Shown: positions 7,011-41,151 of the stretch, in pieces
How the letters are laid out: each line of letters opens with the position of its first letter
Position numbering within the stretch: position 1 is the stretch's first letter
DNA from: a virus
Taxonomy: Duplodnaviria; Caudoviricetes
Reading direction: 5' to 3' (one strand)
DNA: 64,000 bases
IMG/VR virus record: IMGVR_UViG_3300032319_000568
Location: 15,607 to 79,606 of that record
Position numbers and translations under genes: made by a program
Notes under the pieces: model-generated
What the model saw: only the letters and a program-made list of their open reading frames with translations
What the model was told of the DNA's origin: nothing
Databases searched by the model: none

Positions 7011-7688
7011 ATGTCACGTGTCATATTATTCAGCCATCATTACGTTAATGACAAAATTATTGAACGGTTTAATAATTTAATAAATTTAAATCCTACATGG
7101 GATGTACATCCAATTGGATTTCAAGGATACAGTTTATTACCAAATTCTCTGATTGTTAATAAGGACAAATACCCTACAAATTTTGAATTAAGAGAGACAC
7201 ATCCAAATCATCATGTAGATTGGTTTGACCCGGATTTATTTATTTACGATGGCTTTTTACAATGCCCAAATTATGATGCATATTTTTTATATGAATATGA
7301 TACAATATGTAATATTCCCATTGATAAATTTTTTGACACAACTTTAGATTTTTTTGGTAACAATATCTCTAATCCGGCAAATGAGAATTGGGAATGGGTG
7401 GAACGATATAGATTAACAAATAAAAATCATCATCATTTCAAAACATTATATGCATATGGTCAATCAACATGCATTTATTTTAAAAAACATATATTAGAAC
7501 AATGTGTAAATGAATTATTTACAAATAAACATTTATATAATAATATGTTGTCTGAACTCAGAGGTGGAACATTAGCTCAAAAATTTACAAATCTTAAAAA
7601 AGGAAGAGTTGATATAGATAAATTTATTACATGGCATCAAATAGATCCGTGTTTAACAGGTGAATATTTTTATCATCCTATGAAATAA
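7011..7688 (+). CDS. hypothetical protein, glycosyltransferase-like
   Basis: YFLYEYDT DxD-like motif, C-terminal YHPMK; context. Confidence 0.45.
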   Translation: MSRVILFSHHYVNDKIIERFNNLINLNPTWDVHPIGFQGYSLLPNSLIVNKDKYPTNFELRETHPNHHVDWFDPDLFIYDGFLQCPNYDAYFLYEYDTICNIPIDKFFDTTLDFFGNNISNPANENWEWVERYRLTNKNHHHFKTLYAYGQSTCIYFKKHILEQCVNELFTNKHLYNNMLSELRGGTLAQKFTNLKKGRVDIDKFITWHQIDPCLTGEYFYHPMK

Positions 7689-8385
7689 TATTAATATCTT
7701 TAATTCCAGAAGCATGTGCATTTAAATGCAATAATTTTACCGGATTTTTATTATCTTTTTCATAGATGCATGGAGGATGTGTGTATCCTGAATGTAATAA
7801 TCTAGACGGATTATTTAATATATATTTATTAAAATGTGATTCATCGTGCCACAAAGCGATATAGTTATTTTTTAGATCAGTATTGATGTTTTCATTTAAT
7901 TCTTCCGACATTTTTATAAAAATATGTGAAGATGATCCAAAAAAACAAGCTTGGCAATATTTTCCATATAGTTCATCCGTTACTTCTACATATGCGGTTG
8001 ATTGTGTGTTTGTTTCATATGTACCGGTAGAATTTTCCAAGTAGAAATGTTTTGTAGCAATCATTTCATTATTTGATGGTAGTATTTCTTCATCTATGAA
8101 TGAATGAACCAACATATCACAATCAATATAATAAACATAATCGAATGTTTTTAATATGTTTGATATATTAGTAAAATAAAAAAATCTCATTAAAGTGGTA
8201 ATCGGCCACGGCAAATGATTGATTTTAATTACATTTGTATTTGTATAATTTATATCTACGTCTGTAAATACAAATAATGTTTTATCATGATTTGGTAAAA
8301 ACTTTAAAAATATACTTTTATGTAGTGGTTCTAAAAATGAAGTATATTTGCTTGTTGCAATTGTTAATAATGCTATTTTTGCCAT
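7678..8385 (-). CDS. GT6-family (ABO-type alpha-1,3-Gal/GalNAc) glycosyltransferase
   Basis: IATSKY..F, FVFTD, WP..TLMRF, YYIDCDM (DxD), WHDESHFNKY are GT6 hallmark motifs. Confidence 0.88.
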   Translation of the reverse strand: MAKIALLTIATSKYTSFLEPLHKSIFLKFLPNHDKTLFVFTDVDINYTNTNVIKINHLPWPITTLMRFFYFTNISNILKTFDYVYYIDCDMLVHSFIDEEILPSNNEMIATKHFYLENSTGTYETNTQSTAYVEVTDELYGKYCQACFFGSSSHIFIKMSEELNENINTDLKNNYIALWHDESHFNKYILNNPSRLLHSGYTHPPCIYEKDNKNPVKLLHLNAHASGIKDINIIS

Positions 8386-12118: not shown

Positions 12119-14087
12119 TAATTTAGATAAACTGCCAGGAGGAGTAGGCGATCATACACCGACAGATCAGATTGATCCTATTCAACTAAGTACAGGTATA
12201 CAAATTGAGATGGAACATACAAACGATACTGGAGTTGCACAGTCTATCGCTATGGATCATCTTACAGTAGATCCTAAATATTACAGTAAATTGGTTGCTG
12301 CTGGATTAACTAGTGAATTTAAACCATCAACTGGTTCTGGATTAGGCGATACAAATCAAAGTATTAACGATGAATCTAGAGTTGGTAATAAAGGTTTACA
12401 AAAAAATAATATGGGTGGAACTATTGGCGGTACACCAAATGGACAAGTAGATGGTAGAAATAGTGAACCAATTATTAACAAAACGATTGATATTGAATTG
12501 GAAAATCAAACTTTTAGTAGCTTAGAAGAAGCTATATTAGACGAAAAGAAAAGAAGAAAATCTGGTAAAGCTAAAAGAAAACCAAAACCAACAAATCCCT
12601 CTTTATGGGCTAGAGCCAAATCTGCAGCAAGATCTAAATTTGATGTTTATCCGTGTGTACCACTTGATAGTAAAGCTCTCACAAAAAATGGATGGAAAAC
12701 ATACGAAGAGTTAACTATTGGTGAATTGATATTAACTTATAATATTAATAAAGATGAGTTGGAGTGGAAACCAATATTGAATCTTAATTTTTTTGAAAAT
12801 GCTGAATTAATAAGAATGTATAAACCTACCGGATTTTCAATAAAATGTACACCCAATCACAAATGGGTTGTACAAAGAGGGCCCGATTATTCTACAGTTG
12901 AGTTAATTGAAACAAAAGATTTACCTAAAAGATCTAGAATAGTAATATGTGCGGAGTTAAAAAGTAATGAGAATATAGTATTAGAAAATTTTTCAAAAAC
13001 CGATAATTGGACTGAAAACGTTATTAATATGAGTTCTGAACAAAGAAAATCGTTTTTAGCGGCTTCTATAATATATGATGGTTGGGATAGAGGATCGTCT
13101 TCAAAGATAGAAGGCCGACACACATTTGGATTTGTTCAGAAAAATTCAGATCATTTGGATGCTGGTTTATTAGCAGCGTATTTAAGTGGCTATTATGTAT
13201 CGGTACACGACCGAGGATATATTACATCTGCTAGTTTTATAAGAAATAAAAAGTGTCATTCTGTTCAGAATGTAAAATTTGAAAAAACAGAAAATGAAGA
13301 TGTTTGGTGTCCAACAACCGAAAATAATACCTGGGTAATGTATCAAAACGGTTTAATTACGATTACCGGCAATTCCGCTTATGCTAATGGTTGGGCCACT
13401 AAATGGTACAAGAGTAAAGGCGGTGGATGGCGAATGAGTGAAGCTTATCCAGCTCAAGCTATGGAAAGTCCGTATCCATCTGACGGAACAATGATTGGAT
13501 CTGGTACAAATGGTAGTGGATATGATTTTGTCGGATATGCAGAAAGTAAAAAAACTATGAATAAACAACAACTAAAAGAAGCTATTAAACGAATGATTCG
13601 TGAAATGGAACAAGATGATGTTAATGTGGATGCGGAAAAAGAATCTGTGACTATCACATTGGATCGTGAACTTGCTCAAAAACTTCACGCTTTATTAATG
13701 ACACAACTAACTCCACCAGGCGAAGATGCTGAACAAACTCCTGCTGGACCAGAAGACGCAAATGCTGTGGTACCAGATGAAGACGATACAGAAGTTACCG
13801 CTGCTAACATGAGCAGCGATCAATTGCCAATTAAAGCTGGTGAAGAAAGTGGTGAATCTGTTGATGACGTTACATCCGATGAATCGGATTCAATGGATGA
13901 AGCTAAAAAGAAATGGATACAAAAAGCTATTACTAAACCAGGCGCTTTGAAAAAACAACTGGGTGTAGCCGCCGGTAAAAAAATAGCATCGGGTAAATTA
14001 GCTGCTGCAGCTAAGAAGAGTGGTAAACTTGGTCAAAGAGCACGATTGGCTATGACGCTTCGTAAGTTAAAAGAAAATCTAGAATAA
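12111..14087 (+). CDS. modular phage protein (DUF5661-like N-terminus, KFDVYP-SAYANGW module, KWIQKA..PGAL module) containing an intein
   Basis: GIQIEMEHT..IAMDHL..DPKYYSKL; intein aa 182-421; acidic linkers between basic modules. Confidence 0.8.
   Translation: MINNLDKLPGGVGDHTPTDQIDPIQLSTGIQIEMEHTNDTGVAQSIAMDHLTVDPKYYSKLVAAGLTSEFKPSTGSGLGDTNQSINDESRVGNKGLQKNNMGGTIGGTPNGQVDGRNSEPIINKTIDIELENQTFSSLEEAILDEKKRRKSGKAKRKPKPTNPSLWARAKSAARSKFDVYPCVPLDSKALTKNGWKTYEELTIGELILTYNINKDELEWKPILNLNFFENAELIRMYKPTGFSIKCTPNHKWVVQRGPDYSTVELIETKDLPKRSRIVICAELKSNENIVLENFSKTDNWTENVINMSSEQRKSFLAASIIYDGWDRGSSSKIEGRHTFGFVQKNSDHLDAGLLAAYLSGYYVSVHDRGYITSASFIRNKKCHSVQNVKFEKTENEDVWCPTTENNTWVMYQNGLITITGNSAYANGWATKWYKSKGGGWRMSEAYPAQAMESPYPSDGTMIGSGTNGSGYDFVGYAESKKTMNKQQLKEAIKRMIREMEQDDVNVDAEKESVTITLDRELAQKLHALLMTQLTPPGEDAEQTPAGPEDANAVVPDEDDTEVTAANMSSDQLPIKAGEESGESVDDVTSDESDSMDEAKKKWIQKAITKPGALKKQLGVAAGKKIASGKLAAAAKKSGKLGQRARLAMTLRKLKENLE
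12654..13373 (+). mobile_element. cis-splicing intein, 240 aa, degenerate LAGLIDADG remnant
   Basis: starts CVPLDSKALTKNGW, block B CTPNHKW, ends VWCPTTENNTWV..ITGN followed by Ser; removal gives contiguous FDVYP|SAYANGW. Confidence 0.92.
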
Positions 14088-37263: not shown

Positions 37264-37344
37264 GCTCCGGTAATGGCGGGGACTTCTAAGCCCTAAGTGC
37301 ATAATTGGATGAAAATGGGGGTTCAACTCCCTCCCGGAGCGCCA
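37264..37344 (+). tRNA. trnR: atypical tRNA-Arg(UCU) lacking a D-arm
   Basis: acceptor GCTCCGG/CCGGAGC, G73-CCA, loop CTTCTAA, T-arm GGGGG-TTCAACT-CCCTC; only 7 nt between acceptor and anticodon stems. Confidence 0.65.
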
Positions 37345-37405
37345 TTTTTGATCATATTCATAAATTTGTATATATTTATATGTTCAAACTTCTATTAAAA
37401 AGAAG

Positions 37406-37433
37406 TTGATTCTTTGAAAATTTGCGGTAAGAT
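37406..37433 (+). promoter_or_regulatory. sigma70-type promoter (GGTAAGATA class)
   Basis: TTGATT-16nt-TAAGAT. Confidence 0.65.
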
Positions 37434-37453
37434 AAAGAAGTAATAAGTATTTC

Positions 37454-37545
37454 GTTCTTTCAGCATGGTGGGAGAAGCACTCCTCTGGAACATCTACGAA
37501 TGGCGGAACTGCCTCGGCCTTTAACCGAAGGGGGTCACCAACGAA
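37454..37545 (+). ncRNA. unassigned ~90-nt structured RNA
   Basis: closing TTCTTTC/GAAAGAA and TGGTG/CACCA helices enclosing two hairpins; between two promoters. Confidence 0.4.
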
Positions 37546-37560
37546 AGAATGAAATGATAG

Positions 37561-37588
37561 TTGACAACAAAAGAATGTGTGGTAAGAT
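37561..37588 (+). promoter_or_regulatory. sigma70-type promoter (GGTAAGATA class) for tRNA array
   Basis: TTGACA-16nt-TAAGAT. Confidence 0.8.
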
Positions 37589-37600
37589 AAAAAAGTAGTA

Positions 37601-37613
37601 AGTTCTTTAACAA
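37601..37613 (+). promoter_or_regulatory. boxA-like antitermination element (further copies at 38057, 38241, 38441, 39238, 39737, 39918)
   Basis: AGTTCTTTAACAA versus rrn boxA TGCTCTTTAACAA. Confidence 0.65.
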
Positions 37614-37622
37614 ATTTTTAAT

Positions 37623-37699
37623 GGCCTTGTAGCTCAGTTGGTAGTAGCAGAAGCCTTTTAAGCTTTTGGTCGTGGGTTCGAGTCCCACCGGGGCCACCA
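37623..37699 (+). tRNA. trnK: tRNA-Lys(UUU)
   Basis: cloverleaf, GAAGC-CTTTTAA-GCTTT, TTCGAGT, encoded CCA. Confidence 0.93.
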
Positions 37700-37706
37700 T
37701 TTTAAC

Positions 37707-37781
37707 GGTCTGTTCGTCTATCGGCTAGGACTCCGGATTTTCACTCCGGTAAGAGGGGTTCGATTCCCCTACAGACTACCA
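37707..37781 (+). tRNA. trnE: tRNA-Glu(UUC)
   Basis: cloverleaf, CCGGA-TTTTCAC-TCCGG, TTCGATT, CCA. Confidence 0.93.
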
Positions 37782-38056
37782 CTTTGTACGTACAAACATA
37801 TGTGAGTGTAGGACACTTTAAATAAGGCAAAACATATTAAGCGCATGTGTTTAATATAAAGTAGCAGCATATGAAATTTTATGTTTGGTTGTTTAACTAG
37901 GAAAAACAACTTGGTGGAGGGCGTTAAACCATAACACCCCTAGAGTATGGAAGATCTCTTAAAAAACTTCTTGGTTGCGGGCTTAGCAAGTGGTATACTT
38001 TGTTTGTTGGGTGGATAGAGTATTCAATAAAACACACCCAACTAGATTTTTAAGAT
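37782..38056 (+). ncRNA. unassigned ~270-nt structured RNA between tRNAs
   Basis: no ORF; multiple hairpins (GTTGTTT/AAACAAC, GGGCGTTA/TAACACCC, GTTGGGTG/CACCCAAC). Confidence 0.45.
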
Positions 38057-38070
38057 AGTTCTTTAAAATT

Positions 38071-38157
38071 TGCGGAGTGTGAGAAGTCAGGTATCTCAAC
38101 GGTTTCATAATCCGTCGCCTATGTGCCTCGCAGGTTCAAATCCTGCCTCCGCTACCA
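38071..38157 (+). tRNA. trnM: tRNA-Met(CAU), initiator-like, extended variable region
   Basis: U1:U72 mismatch, loop TTCATAA, T-arm GCAGG-TTCAAAT-CCTGC, CCA; 87 nt. Confidence 0.8.
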
Positions 38158-38164
38158 TTTCAAT

Positions 38165-38236
38165 GGCTGGGGCTTCAGCAAGCGAGATTCTTTCATACGG
38201 AATCTTTAATGAGGGCAGCACTCATACCAGCTACCA
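38165..38236 (+). tRNA. atypical CAU-anticodon tRNA
   Basis: 7-bp anticodon stem with loop TTCATAC, 4-nt D-loop, T-loop GGCAGCA, CCA. Confidence 0.6.
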
Positions 38237-38260
38237 TTTTAGTTCTTTAACAAAACAATT

Positions 38261-38332
38261 TGCAGATTGGTGTAATGGCAACACAATACGCTCATAACGT
38301 ATAGTTCACGTTCAAGTCGTGGTCTGCTCCCA
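38261..38332 (+). tRNA. trnM: tRNA-Met(CAU)
   Basis: ATACG-CTCATAA-CGTAT, TTCAAGT, U1:U72 mismatch, C73-CCA. Confidence 0.8.
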
Positions 38333-38338
38333 TTTAGT

Positions 38339-38432
38339 GGTTCCGTAGTTTAACGGTAGAACGCAACGCTTATAACGTTGATAAGCTCTAGATTTGAGCA
38401 CGGTCTCGGTTCGAATCCGGGCGGAACCACCA
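38339..38432 (+). tRNA. trnI: tRNA-Ile(UAU) with long variable arm
   Basis: CAACG-CTTATAA-CGTTG, variable hairpin GCTC-TAGATTT-GAGC, TTCGAAT, A73-CCA; 94 nt. Confidence 0.85.
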
Positions 38433-38516
38433 TTTTTAATAGTTCATTGAAAATTAAAATTAAATTGGTAGACAAAATAATTTGTATTTTGAGTTGTGTC
38501 TACCATATATATTCAT

Positions 38517-39221
38517 ATGAATAAATTATGTGAATATGGATGTGGATTGCCAGCAATTAATCAACTAAAAAATGGAAAGTTTTGTTGTTCAAAACACAAC
38601 AATAGTTGTCCTGAAAATAAAAAGAAAAACGCTGAAGGATTGAAACAATCATATGAAAGTGGGGTTAGAAAACCAGCTGGATATGTTTATGAAAAATTAT
38701 CTGATGATGTAAAGAAAAGAATGGCGTGGTCTAGAGGTAAATCATCTTATGATGACACTAGAATAAAAAACAAATATTCAGATGACCAAATTTTTAAAGA
38801 AAATACAACCATTTCAAATAAAGTTGTAAAAAGCAGATTAATGTCAAATCCAAATTTTGAACATAAGTGTGAGTTATGTTCTACTAAAGAATGGTATGAC
38901 CCTTTTGAAAGTAAAACTAAGCCAGTAAATCTAGAATTAGACCATATAAATGGCAATGAAAGAGACAACAGAAAAGAAAATTTAAGATTGATTTGTTCTA
39001 ATTGTCATAGTTTTACTCCTACATATAAAGGGAGAAACATTAATAAATTTCTAAATCGGGGCGATAGAAAAGTTTCTGATGAAATTCTTTTACAAGAGTT
39101 GAAAACAAAAAATATAAGACAATCTTTAATTTCAGTAGGATTATGTGCTTCTGGTGAAAATTATGAAAGATGTAAAATTTTGAAAAGTCAGTTGACTTCA
39201 GAAGAAAATGTGGTAAGATGA
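38517..39221 (+). CDS. free-standing HNH endonuclease inside tRNA array
   Basis: CEYGCG..CCS, CELC, ELDHINGNERDNRKENLRLICSNCHSFTPTYKGRN. Confidence 0.9.
   Translation: MNKLCEYGCGLPAINQLKNGKFCCSKHNNSCPENKKKNAEGLKQSYESGVRKPAGYVYEKLSDDVKKRMAWSRGKSSYDDTRIKNKYSDDQIFKENTTISNKVVKSRLMSNPNFEHKCELCSTKEWYDPFESKTKPVNLELDHINGNERDNRKENLRLICSNCHSFTPTYKGRNINKFLNRGDRKVSDEILLQELKTKNIRQSLISVGLCASGENYERCKILKSQLTSEENVVR
39192..39219 (+). promoter_or_regulatory. sigma70-type promoter embedded in the HNH 3' end
   Basis: TTGACT-16nt-TAAGAT. Confidence 0.75.
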
Positions 39222-39260
39222 AAGAGTAGTAAGTGATGGTTCTTTGTAAGTAATTTAAAT

Positions 39261-39594
39261 GGGCGTGTAGACCAGCGGAAGAGTCAACAGACTTTAGCGT
39301 AAATTGAGTGCTTAGAGAGAAATCTCTAAAGTAGAATTTGTCAAATTCGGGGAAAGCTTAACTGCCAATCCCGAGCCAAGCTCAGAAATGAGAAGGTGTA
39401 GAGACTTAACGGCAAACATCTAAAACAGAAATGTTATGATGAAGAGAAAGTCCAGACCACAAACGATGAAATCAGTTGTATATGATGGGCTATAATCCAT
39501 TTAAATTACAACTTGTCAAAAGACCGTCGGTAGTGAAAACTATAGTGGTACGAAAATCTGTAAAGCGGTGGTTCGAATCCACTCACGCCTACCA
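39261..39594 (+). tRNA. trnL: tRNA-Leu(UAA) split by a group I intron (exons 39261-39294 and 39553-39594)
   Basis: spliced 76-nt cloverleaf, ACAGA-CTT|AAAA-TCTGT, T-arm GGTGG-TTCGAAT-CCACT, A73-CCA. Confidence 0.92.
39295..39552 (+). mobile_element. ORF-less group I intron, 258 nt, trnL(UAA)/IC3-like
   Basis: P AAATTCGGGGAAA, Q AATCCCGAGCCAAG, R GAAGGTGTAGAGACT, S GAAGAGAAAGTCCAG; follows U34, ends in G. Confidence 0.92.
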
Positions 39595-39607
39595 TTTTCA
39601 ATTGAAT

Positions 39608-39734
39608 AAGTTGTAGCGAATGGCGCAGCAGGAGGTCGGTACCCAAAGTTGTAGACACGGGGAAAACCGCCGATTAACGATATAACTATGAATAGACGTT
39701 ATGTATGTGGGTTCAAGTCCCATCAACTTTTTCA
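39608..39734 (+). ncRNA. tRNA-like RNA with expanded anticodon region, no encoded CCA
   Basis: acceptor AAGTTG/CAACTT, D-arm GCG-AATGG-CGC, T-arm GTGGG-TTCAAGT-CCCAT. Confidence 0.55.
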
Positions 39735-39749
39735 ATAGTTCTTTAAATT

Positions 39750-39910
39750 TTTGGGTGAAGGGTGATATTATATCGTTTTTACTTGTTTTTCTCCTTATTT
39801 CTACTAATGTAGATGTAGGATAAGCTGCGAGTTAAAATCTGAGGTTAACTAGGATTTTAATTTCAAAATGATGCTTAATAAAACAATAGTCACTAATAAG
39901 CCCCAATAAT
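39750..39910 (+). ncRNA. unassigned ~160-nt structured RNA containing a Cas12a-repeat-like hairpin
   Basis: bounded by boxA-like sites; TTGGG/CCCAA closure; TTAAAATC/GATTTTAA hairpin. Confidence 0.4.
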
Positions 39911-39934
39911 TTTCAATAGTTCTTTAACAATTTA

Positions 39935-40234
39935 AGATAGTGGCGGAACAACAATTAGTTTAGTTGTAACGCACAATATATGGCGTTGAAAAACGTTGTA
40001 TATTGGTTGGAGTAGGAGTCATGGAGGGTAAATCTATGGAGAATTTGAGGTCGTACAACCTTGAATTTGAGCGTATCGGGATCGTAGCTAAAATATATGA
40101 TAAATCGTAGCCCGTTGTGGGGAAAACAAAATCCCATCAGTCATTAACACAAGGAGTAATTAACCGTGTGGACTGTGGATGAATAACCAGTCGTGATTCT
40201 GAAACTTGGAGGTAATCATTAGTCCTTCCTATTT
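39935..40234 (+). ncRNA. unassigned ~300-nt structured RNA with tRNA-like ends
   Basis: AGATAG/CTATTT closure, TGGCGGAA D-loop-like, GGAGG/CCTTC T-like stem, several internal hairpins. Confidence 0.45.
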
Positions 40235-40244
40235 GAATTTAAAC

Positions 40245-40317
40245 GCGGGTCAGGTGTAAAGAGAGCACGTTAGTCTACCAGACTAAAAGGCGAAATGCAA
40301 AGTTCGGACCCGCTCCA
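40245..40317 (+). tRNA. trnG: tRNA-Gly(ACC)
   Basis: G1C2G3/C70G71C72, U73-CCA (Gly identity); TTAGT-CTACCAG-ACTAA; slightly short T-loop. Confidence 0.8.
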
Positions 40318-40325
40318 GTTTTAAT

Positions 40326-40398
40326 GCGATATTAGTGTCATGAGGAGCACGCTCACATTCCAGTGAGTAGGCCGGTGCAAGTCCGAGATATCGCTCCA
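40326..40398 (+). tRNA. trnG: tRNA-Gly(UCC)-like with 8-nt anticodon loop and weak T-stem
   Basis: GCGATAT/ATATCGC, U73-CCA; GCTCA-CATTCCAG-TGAGT. Confidence 0.65.
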
Positions 40399-40407
40399 GT
40401 TTTTGAT

Positions 40408-40484
40408 AGTCCTGTAGCTCAACAGAGCAGAGCAATCAGTTTATAACTGATAGGTTGTGGGTTCGAAGCCCATCGGGACTACCA
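40408..40484 (+). tRNA. trnI: tRNA-Ile(UAU)
   Basis: ATCAG-TTTATAA-CTGAT, GTGGG-TTCGAAG-CCCAT, A73-CCA. Confidence 0.9.
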
Positions 40485-40493
40485 TTTTATAAC

Positions 40494-40607
40494 GGATCAA
40501 TAGCTCAATTCGGTTAGAGCAGTGAACTCTTTCGCTGCTTATAAACTAAAAGGTATAAGTAGAAAATAATTCATCGGTTATCGGTTCAAGTCCGGTTTGA
40601 TCCACCA
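40494..40607 (+). tRNA. tRNA with 36-nt insertion in the anticodon loop (spliced anticodon CAU or CUU)
   Basis: canonical D-arm, T-arm, acceptor GGATCAA/TTGATCC, A73-CCA; anticodon stem GTGAA/TTCAT encloses 43 nt instead of 7. Confidence 0.8.
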
Positions 40608-40609
40608 TT

Positions 40610-41011
40610 TTAATAAATCTTTAGTCCTAGAGATTTTCTCCCTTTACCTTTATTTTTTGCTCTACAAGTATCAAGTTGTGAATCACAATTAGGACATATT
40701 AAACGAAAATTAGAATAAGAATTGTTATTAGCATATCCGTCAATGTGGTCTACCCACAACCTTATAGGTTTACTATTCCAATTATTTCCGTCTATACCAC
40801 AAAGTGAACATTTATTTCCATAATCTTCACATAACATTGAATATATCAATGGTCTCGTAGGCACTTTTGGATACGAACCATTTCTAATTTGATTTTTAAT
40901 TGCAGTGGTTTGATAATGTTGTTGACATTTATTACTACAATAAATTCCCTTTGATACAGATGAATGATATGTAAATATTTTATTGCATGTTTTACAATTT
41001 GAATTAATCAT
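40610..41011 (-). CDS. free-standing HNH endonuclease
   Basis: CKTC..YCSNKC, CSLCG, WVDHIDGYANNNSYSNFRLICPNCDSQ. Confidence 0.88.
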   Translation of the reverse strand: MINSNCKTCNKIFTYHSSVSKGIYCSNKCQQHYQTTAIKNQIRNGSYPKVPTRPLIYSMLCEDYGNKCSLCGIDGNNWNSKPIRLWVDHIDGYANNNSYSNFRLICPNCDSQLDTCRAKNKGKGRKSLGLKIY

Positions 41012-41151
41012 TTCTCCCCTTTCTTTTTATAATATCTTTCTAATGCTTGTTCTTTTTTAACTTGTTGATTTTTGAAATAATACCGCATTTGTCTTTCACG
41101 TCGTGCGTTTAATTTTTCTTCATCTGTGATATATTTTTCTTTTCTTCCCAT
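41008..41151 (-). CDS. small basic protein (47 aa, not in ORF track)
   Basis: MGRKEKYITDEEKLNARRERQMRYY..; CTATTTAT upstream; ATGA overlap with HNH. Confidence 0.6.
   Translation of the reverse strand: MGRKEKYITDEEKLNARRERQMRYYFKNQQVKKEQALERYYKKKGEK

Follow-up and report, generated by a model that had tools for sequence, protein, structure and literature searches.

Two tRNA genes that are interrupted in their anticodons, each flanked by a free-standing gene predicted to encode an HNH-family nuclease, are found in a 64,000-nt stretch of the IMG/VR virus record IMGVR_UViG_3300032319_000568 (Duplodnaviria; Caudoviricetes), and this locus raises the question of whether nuclease and interruption are partners that travel together, as in collaborative homing, or neighbors by chance. 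The stretch, referred to below as the window, is 64 kb of one 79.6-kb virus contig with 32% G+C and a CheckV completeness of 26%. The arrangement reported in a first-pass annotation was confirmed, in that both interrupted tRNA genes are directly flanked by an HNH gene: the first (HNH1) ends in the promoter of tRNA(UAA), and the second (HNH2) ends 2 nt from the CCA of tRNA(CAU). Comparison of alleles from about 45 related contigs (fetched loci and contigs are denoted by L-numbers) suggests a partnership of HNH gene and split tRNA at tRNA(CAU), and chance crowding is probably the explanation at tRNA(UAA).

Both tRNA genes belong to an island of tRNAs and tRNA-like RNAs, all on one strand, at positions 37264-40607. 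One relative with a matching RNA island is a complete genome of 295,831 bp, and the source of the window is therefore a jumbo phage of roughly 300 kb. A search of cultured-phage DNA returned no close relatives; the only matches were of a generic tRNA kind, apart from one homologous intron in an uncultured phage of 735 kb. Four elements were found to vary independently among the relatives, namely the two HNH cassettes, the intron of tRNA(UAA) and the 36-nt insert of tRNA(CAU). When two HNH genes are placed at random among ~14 spacers, the chance of the HNH/tRNA adjacency in one genome is estimated at about 0.04-0.08, which is mildly unlikely.

Co-occurrence of nuclease genes and interruptions at tRNA(CAU)

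The 3' half of tRNA(CAU) was scanned against IMG/VR and JGI contigs, which returned 11 and 31 contigs, respectively. The gene was uninterrupted and had no nuclease gene downstream in 32 contigs. The interrupted alleles carried the 36-nt insert with HNH2 (the window and L004/L162), a 35-nt insert with HNH3 (L003/L166), a 256-nt group I intron at position 33/34 with HNH3 (L141, L156 and L163), the 35-nt insert alone (L165) or the group I intron alone (L151). HNH3 is unrelated to HNH2 and matches PHROG 2255 at 2.8e-34; in L003 it is located at 7264-7803. An HNH gene was thus located at the 3' end of tRNA(CAU) in six of the eight interrupted alleles, in three HNH/interruption combinations, versus none of the 32 uninterrupted alleles (Fisher p = 7e-6 when counted by contig and 0.008 when counted by lineage).

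Apart from a clean insertion or deletion of ~604 nt just past the CCA, which contains HNH3, the contigs L151 and L156 share 99.2% identity. HNH3 was found in two unrelated downstream contexts that have the tRNA alone in common, indicating that the tRNA is the address of the cassette. This pattern of alleles is what collaborative homing predicts; alternatively, it fits immunity conferred by a broken target site.

The hairpin insert of tRNA(CAU) and the HNH2 gene

The tRNA(CAU) gene is on the forward strand of the window and consists of a 5' part that extends to C34 (40494-40529), a hairpin insert of 36 nt that separates C34 from A35 (40530-40565) and a 3' part from A35 to the CCA end (40566-40607), as defined by comparison with uninterrupted alleles and, for the 5' part, also by the Rfam tRNA model. 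The gene matches that model with 52.9 bits, the anticodon loop containing a gap of 40 nt. Ordinary CAU loops are present in the uninterrupted alleles (L008, L014 and others), and the insert therefore splits C34 from A35 of a tRNA(CAU). The first-pass annotation had taken this tRNA for a reader of CUU, and ARAGORN called it Lys(CUU); both assignments are wrong, as the uninterrupted alleles read CAU.

The insert is predicted to fold into a hairpin whose stem (4 + 8 bp) contains a 2-nt bulge and whose loop has 10 nt. No ribozyme core and no terminal G were found in it, and it has no bulge-helix-bulge motif, the two junctions lying opposite one another at the base of a single hairpin, in a loop of 3 by 4 nt. 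Inserts were found in three phage lineages, among which the anticodon-stem pair 28:42 is U-A, G-C and A-U, and this compensated pair indicates that selection still acts on the anticodon stem, evidence against the gene being dead.

Two possible origins of the insert were considered and rejected. It is not a repeated palindromic element, no second copy being detected in the genome or in ~170 loci. Its ends resemble by eye those of the P2 hairpin of the introns, suggesting a relic, but when it was aligned locally with 32 introns, the best z relative to shuffled controls was 2.7, which is not significant; the intron of the window itself was outside the top 12. A gapped-pattern search for further insert alleles returned the known two only, together with the false positive L172, which contains two adjacent tRNAs. 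In the complete 296-kb relative, which carries the insert, neither tRNA_int_endo nor RtcB was identified and RNA_ligase gave a sub-threshold match only. Searches for RtcB, T4 RNA ligase 1 and EndA produced no match; the T4 RNA ligase control matched nothing anywhere either, so that this search is uninformative.

HNH2 is a predicted free-standing gene on the reverse strand (40610-41011), convergent with tRNA(CAU), whose 3' end at 40607 is 2 nt away. Its assignment to the HNH family is based on motif alignment and on matches to PHROG 10822 (1.3e-17) and PHROG 1271 (2.1e-16), and its product is 33% identical to that of HNH1 over 97 amino acids. A 98.5% identical HNH2 occupies the same place in L004, and the gene is present or absent between homologous loci. 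Its start codon is overlapped by the stop codon of an open reading frame (ORF) for a basic protein of 47 amino acids (41008-41151, reverse strand), which in L004 and L008 accompanies HNH2 or a relative of it; this ORF has no Pfam match and may encode a partner or regulator within the HNH2 cassette.

The group I intron of tRNA(UAA) and the HNH1 gene

The forward-strand tRNA(UAA) gene has a 5' exon that ends at U34 (39261-39294), a 258-nt group I intron with a final G (39295-39552) and a 3' exon from A35 to the CCA end (39553-39594). The exons of the window differ at 2 of 76 positions from an intronless allele (L160:1039-1114), the 5' exon ending in U (39294) and the intron in G (39552), and this match therefore places the intron at 39295-39552, between U34 and A35 of the anticodon UAA. 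ARAGORN called the intron-bearing tRNA Phe(GAA), a call that was overruled by the uninterrupted alleles. The intron matches Rfam RF00028 with 71.4 bits (gathering score 50; E = 3.3e-17), no ORF of at least 60 amino acids was found within it, and it is predicted from its sequence to self-splice at 34/35. Its first 169 nt are ~99% identical to introns in L144, L168 and L170, a 202-nt version that lacks the peripheral extension occurs in relatives, and close relatives of the intron are located at 33/34 of a tRNA-Leu (L002) and of tRNA(CAU) (L141).

The first-pass annotation named this gene an intron-containing tRNA-Leu; the body of tRNA(UAA) is of class I, with a variable loop of 5 nt, and not the long-arm body usual for tRNA-Leu. 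In L007, the acceptor and D stems of this body are maintained by compensatory changes. A class I body reading Leu codons is unusual for bacteria and phages. The U34/A35 site, the small size, the lack of an ORF and the Rfam Intron_gpI match are shared with the group I introns found in the tRNA-Leu(UAA) of bacteria and plastids; the present intron differs in residing in a phage and in a host tRNA whose variable loop is short. The slot after tRNA-Leu(CAA) is occupied in different relatives by either the class I-bodied tRNA(UAA) (76 nt; L160:1039-1114) or a class II tRNA-Leu(UAA) (88 nt; L003:6536-6623).

HNH1 (38517-39221, forward strand; frame 38496/38517) is a free-standing gene predicted by Pfam, PHROG and motif matches to encode an HNH homing endonuclease. 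The product matches Pfam HNH_3 with 25.6 bits (cut-off 24.8) and PHROG 10822 at 5.9e-26, and it consists of an N-terminal Cys-rich module, an HNH core with the motif DH...N...CxxCH and a C-terminal helix-turn-helix-like tail. The gene is intact, decayed or missing between otherwise homologous loci. Just 5' of its start codon, the leader contains an inverted repeat with 7-bp arms (38467-38504, forward strand), which is part of the HNH1 cassette and may control translation; the leader is retained in L144 and in decayed L160 cassettes.

A promoter-like site for tRNA(UAA), TTGAC-N17-TAAGAT with an upstream TG, is located at 39192-39219 on the forward strand, and this motif has four matches in the window compared with 0.19 expected by chance. 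The TGA stop codon of HNH1 (39219-39221) overlaps the -10 box, so that the promoter-like site also codes for the final codons of HNH1, and the tRNA starts at 39261. The same promoter is present in the HNH-free spacer of L008. In L161, the HNH1 slot is filled by a SegE-like gene of the GIY-YIG family (12641-13318, reverse strand), the C-terminal tail of which is likewise coded by the promoter. In L160 (positions 640-960), ~300 nt of G+C-richer DNA, which may code for a small hydrophobic peptide, have replaced the body of the HNH1 cassette, whose leader and last ~25 codons survive. The same replacement is present in L156 and L170.

Co-occurrence of nuclease genes and introns at tRNA(UAA)

An intact HNH1 was found together with the intron in the window, L144 and L002, and an intact HNH1 relative together with an intronless class II tRNA-Leu(UAA) in L003 and L004. 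A decayed HNH1 was found with the intron in L170 and where the intron is absent in L160 and L156, the intron was found without HNH1 in L007 and L168, and many contigs have neither. The co-occurrence of HNH gene and insert that the first-pass annotation anticipated among relatives was thus obtained at tRNA(CAU), and did not apply strictly at tRNA(UAA), where every combination exists. The presence of the intron at tRNA(UAA) is at most loosely tied to HNH1, and the slot just 5' of the tRNA(UAA) promoter looks like a general landing pad, having received two HNH1 types and a GIY-YIG nuclease.

Interrupted tRNA genes in other phages

A scan with 14-mers from the intron gave many matches without intron similarity, and BLAST filtering kept ~40 intron-like sequences, 28 of them in tRNAs called by ARAGORN. 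These 28 further intron-bearing tRNAs, in IMG/VR contigs (L035-L133), are mostly Leu-UAA, and one more was found in the 735-kb phage LR756501. An HNH gene was located within 100 nt of 6 of the 28 intron-bearing tRNAs, compared with 4 of 101 uninterrupted tRNAs from the same loci, in unrelated phage contigs (p = 0.007). Relatives of HNH3 were also found beside tRNAs with other short inserts: a tRNA-Asn(GUU) in L175 (2784-2886) has a 30-nt hairpin insert at 33/34 with the HNH3 relative 11 nt away, and a tRNA in L178 (1455-1591) has a 50-nt, mini-tRNA-like insert with a T-arm-like hairpin and is abutted by the HNH3 relative.

The homologous ORF-less group I introns in these phages are 186-238 nt long, with one of 430 nt, and their other hosts according to ARAGORN are Leu-CAA, Arg, Pro, Tyr, Lys and Ser tRNAs. 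The locus in LR756501 (187325-193493) is L013, and some of the intron-bearing contigs may be host DNA.

Possible explanations for the pairing

The explanation that we favor, with moderate confidence, is that the locus is a crowded site of selfish elements within a jumbo-phage stable-RNA island, at which nuclease and interruption are coupled at tRNA(CAU) and loosely associated at tRNA(UAA). At tRNA(CAU), the nuclease gene is located 2-7 nt beyond the 3' end of the tRNA, and the HNH enzyme would recognize the uninterrupted tRNA(CAU) gene, so that the nuclease would be retained only where a hairpin insert or a group I intron breaks up the anticodon region. Repair of a cut recipient would then copy the interruption and the nuclease gene jointly, which is collaborative homing. 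The sequences show the anatomy of the locus, the presence or absence of the elements and their co-occurrence; where the enzymes would cut, the immunity, the direction in which the elements would move and any removal of the insert from the RNA are inferred. An ORF-less intron that is predicted to self-splice, the kind of partner known from collaborative homing, is present at tRNA(UAA) in the window and at tRNA(CAU) in L141, L151 and L156; the 36-nt insert is not a partner of this kind.

Several observations weigh against coupling at tRNA(CAU) or against a general need of these nucleases for an interrupted neighbor. Many of the metagenome contigs may resample identical populations. All interrupted tRNA(CAU) alleles share a GGATCAA-type acceptor stem, which among the uninterrupted alleles was found in L014 only, and with one acceptor-stem variant, shared descent or co-conversion and hitch-hiking within 50 bp may inflate the association. 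In L007, L008 and L009, relatives of HNH2 (71-79% identical) adjoin a class II tRNA(UAU) that is uninterrupted; this tRNA(UAU) is identical in L008, which has the HNH gene, and in L003, which lacks it, indicating that the HNH2 family does not generally need an altered neighbor. In the same manner, HNH1 relatives tolerate an intact tRNA-Leu(UAA) in L003 and L004, and as the tRNA of L003 does not differ from the L008 allele, which is HNH-free, the HNH1 relative in L003 is independent of an altered tRNA. Finally, HNH2 scores 16.4 bits against Pfam HNH, below the cut-off of 21.4, and the last residue of its motif is Asp instead of His, as is also the case in its L008 relative.

The observed pairs could also be produced by a hot spot at which the interruptions merely hitch-hike. 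Cutting would then be SegB-like, at tRNA 3' ends or the spacer junction for HNH2 and HNH3 and near the promoter for HNH1; insertion of the nuclease gene would itself destroy the target, and the interruptions would be passengers co-converted within 50 bp. SegB recognizes a T-arm motif and cuts tRNA genes at their 3' ends (PMC2330249), a tRNA 3' end is nearly always 0-17 nt from HNH2, HNH3 or one of their relatives, HNH2-like and HNH1-like genes adjoin tRNAs identical to HNH-free alleles, and the single acceptor-stem variant mentioned above points in the same direction. However, at least three separate landings beside rare interrupted alleles would be needed (one of HNH2 at the insert and two of HNH3, at the insert and at the intron), with zero landings beside the common uninterrupted allele (lineage p = 0.008), and the recombinants of nuclease and uninterrupted tRNA that a hot spot leads one to expect were not seen. 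Hitch-hiking at a hot spot is considered a serious possibility, but not a probable one. The first-pass annotation had proposed that HNH1 and HNH2 both cut the uninterrupted anticodon of their neighbor and that both interruptions serve self-immunity. This agrees with the co-occurrence pattern at tRNA(CAU) and with the finding that both intact window-type HNH1 copies neighboring tRNA(UAA) (the window and L144) adjoin an intron allele, window-type cassettes beside the intronless allele being decayed remnants only (L160 and L156). The window-type sample, however, amounts to two copies, the HNH1 relatives that coexist with intact tRNA-Leu(UAA) in L003 and L004 are 76-80% identical in their catalytic and C-terminal parts, the intron persists without HNH1 (L007 and L168) and with a dead HNH1 (L170), and the GIY-YIG nuclease in the same slot is located beside an intronless tRNA. 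Homing at both anticodons is quite unlikely, and this interpretation is supported in part: by co-occurrence it is plausible at tRNA(CAU), and it is weak at tRNA(UAA), where HNH1 relatives reside by intact tRNAs.

A role of the HNH proteins in RNA processing, in which they would aid excision of the hairpin insert or splicing of the intron in a maturase-like manner, appears very improbable. A ribozyme is lacking from the 36-nt insert, the complete 296-kb relative gave no match for RtcB or a tRNA-splicing endonuclease, and the compensated anticodon stem of the insert alleles is such that a mechanism for removal or tolerance seems needed. On the other hand, the insert is present in L165 without an adjacent HNH gene, two unrelated HNH families would both need the activity, and no HNH homing enzyme is known to splice RNA.

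A more specific suggestion, which is tentative and which we think less likely to be right than wrong by some distance, is that the 35-36-nt hairpins form a previously undescribed class of phage tRNA mini-introns that lack a ribozyme, which would be removed or tolerated with the help of enzymes and would persist as a shield against an adjacent anticodon-targeting nuclease. The 30-nt insert in L175 and the 50-nt insert in L178 are possible further members. If true, a nuclease and a mini-intron could form a partnership without the need for catalytic RNA.

Other RNA genes of the island

Class II tRNA bodies, with a long variable arm, are normally those of Leu, Ser or Tyr tRNAs. Class II-bodied tRNAs with the anticodons UAU and CAU are located at 38339-38432 and 38071-38157, respectively, and are kept across many related phages (L001, L003, L007-L009, L014 and others). 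The island also contains tRNA-sized RNAs at 38161-38235, 39648-39730, 40245-40317 and 40326-40398, with a larger stretch at 39930-40400, which have 6-7-bp acceptor-like stems and NCCA-like ends; they were called by neither ARAGORN nor Rfam and are kept in L003, L008 and L160. The motif (T/A)GTTCTTT(A/G) is found 10-25 nt 5' of most RNA genes of the island (approximate starts 37596, 38055, 38239, 39237, 39735 and 39916) and may be a processing or transcription-start signal.

Comparison with known systems and significance

Collaborative homing has been described for F-CphI with cyanophage S-PM2's ORF-less psbA intron, and for mobE with the nrdB intron of T4 (PMC3984707, PMC2790892, PMC6083498). 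As in those systems, the interruption is thought to lie within the nuclease target, so that the pair travels together. The present candidate system differs from them in that the hosts are tRNAs and not protein genes, two unrelated HNH families share one address and one partner is a ribozyme-free 36-nt hairpin.

Free-standing homing endonucleases within phage tRNA clusters, namely T4 SegB and the T5 enzymes F-TflI, -II and -IV, spread neighboring tRNA genes (PMC2330249). They resemble the nucleases described here in being free-standing and within a phage tRNA cluster, and their targets are within tRNA genes. SegB differs in being a GIY-YIG enzyme with T-arm recognition and no association with tRNA interruptions; HNH1, HNH2 and HNH3 are of the HNH type and thus outside the SegB family. 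By analogy, a SegB-like mode of action is possible for the HNH genes that abut tRNA 3' ends. I-Ssp6803I, from the tRNA-fMet intron of a cyanobacterium (Bonocora and Shub 2001), has the tRNA-fMet anticodon region as its specific target, according to its citation in PMC3984707. This enzyme differs from those at the present locus in being intron-encoded, and bacterial rather than from a phage. I-Ssp6803I belongs to the PD-(D/E)XK family.

TRNA introns described as "enigmatic" were reported in the Lak megaphages, together with the statement that phage tRNA introns were previously unreported (Devoto et al., PMC6784885). Those elements are, like the hairpins described here, inserts conserved in the anticodon loop of huge-phage tRNAs that belong to no known class of intron, but the Lak inserts were not linked to nucleases. 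The Jug jumbo phages contain many ~206-nt ORF-less group I introns that split essential protein-coding genes, as well as stand-alone HNH genes (PMC12880540). They share with the present phages the small introns (~200 nt) alongside free-standing nucleases; the interrupted genes named are protein-coding, and no mention of tRNAs was found in that report. In the literature, no description was found of free-standing nucleases paired with interrupted anticodons of phage tRNAs.

In conclusion, collaborative homing has been proposed as the way in which ORF-less introns combine with free-standing nucleases to give rise to mobile introns, with few cases, in protein genes, so far. At tRNA(CAU), natural alleles span nearly every stage at one tRNA gene, being bare, with the intron only, with the insert only, with intron and nuclease or with insert and nuclease. 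With alleles at nearly all stages and two nuclease families, the model is therefore directly testable with short synthetic substrates. A pairing of this kind would offer a selective reason for the unexplained short inserts in the tRNAs of huge phages, and the locus shows that the tRNA supply of phages, which bears on codon use and on escape from tRNA-cleaving defenses, is shaped by selfish elements.

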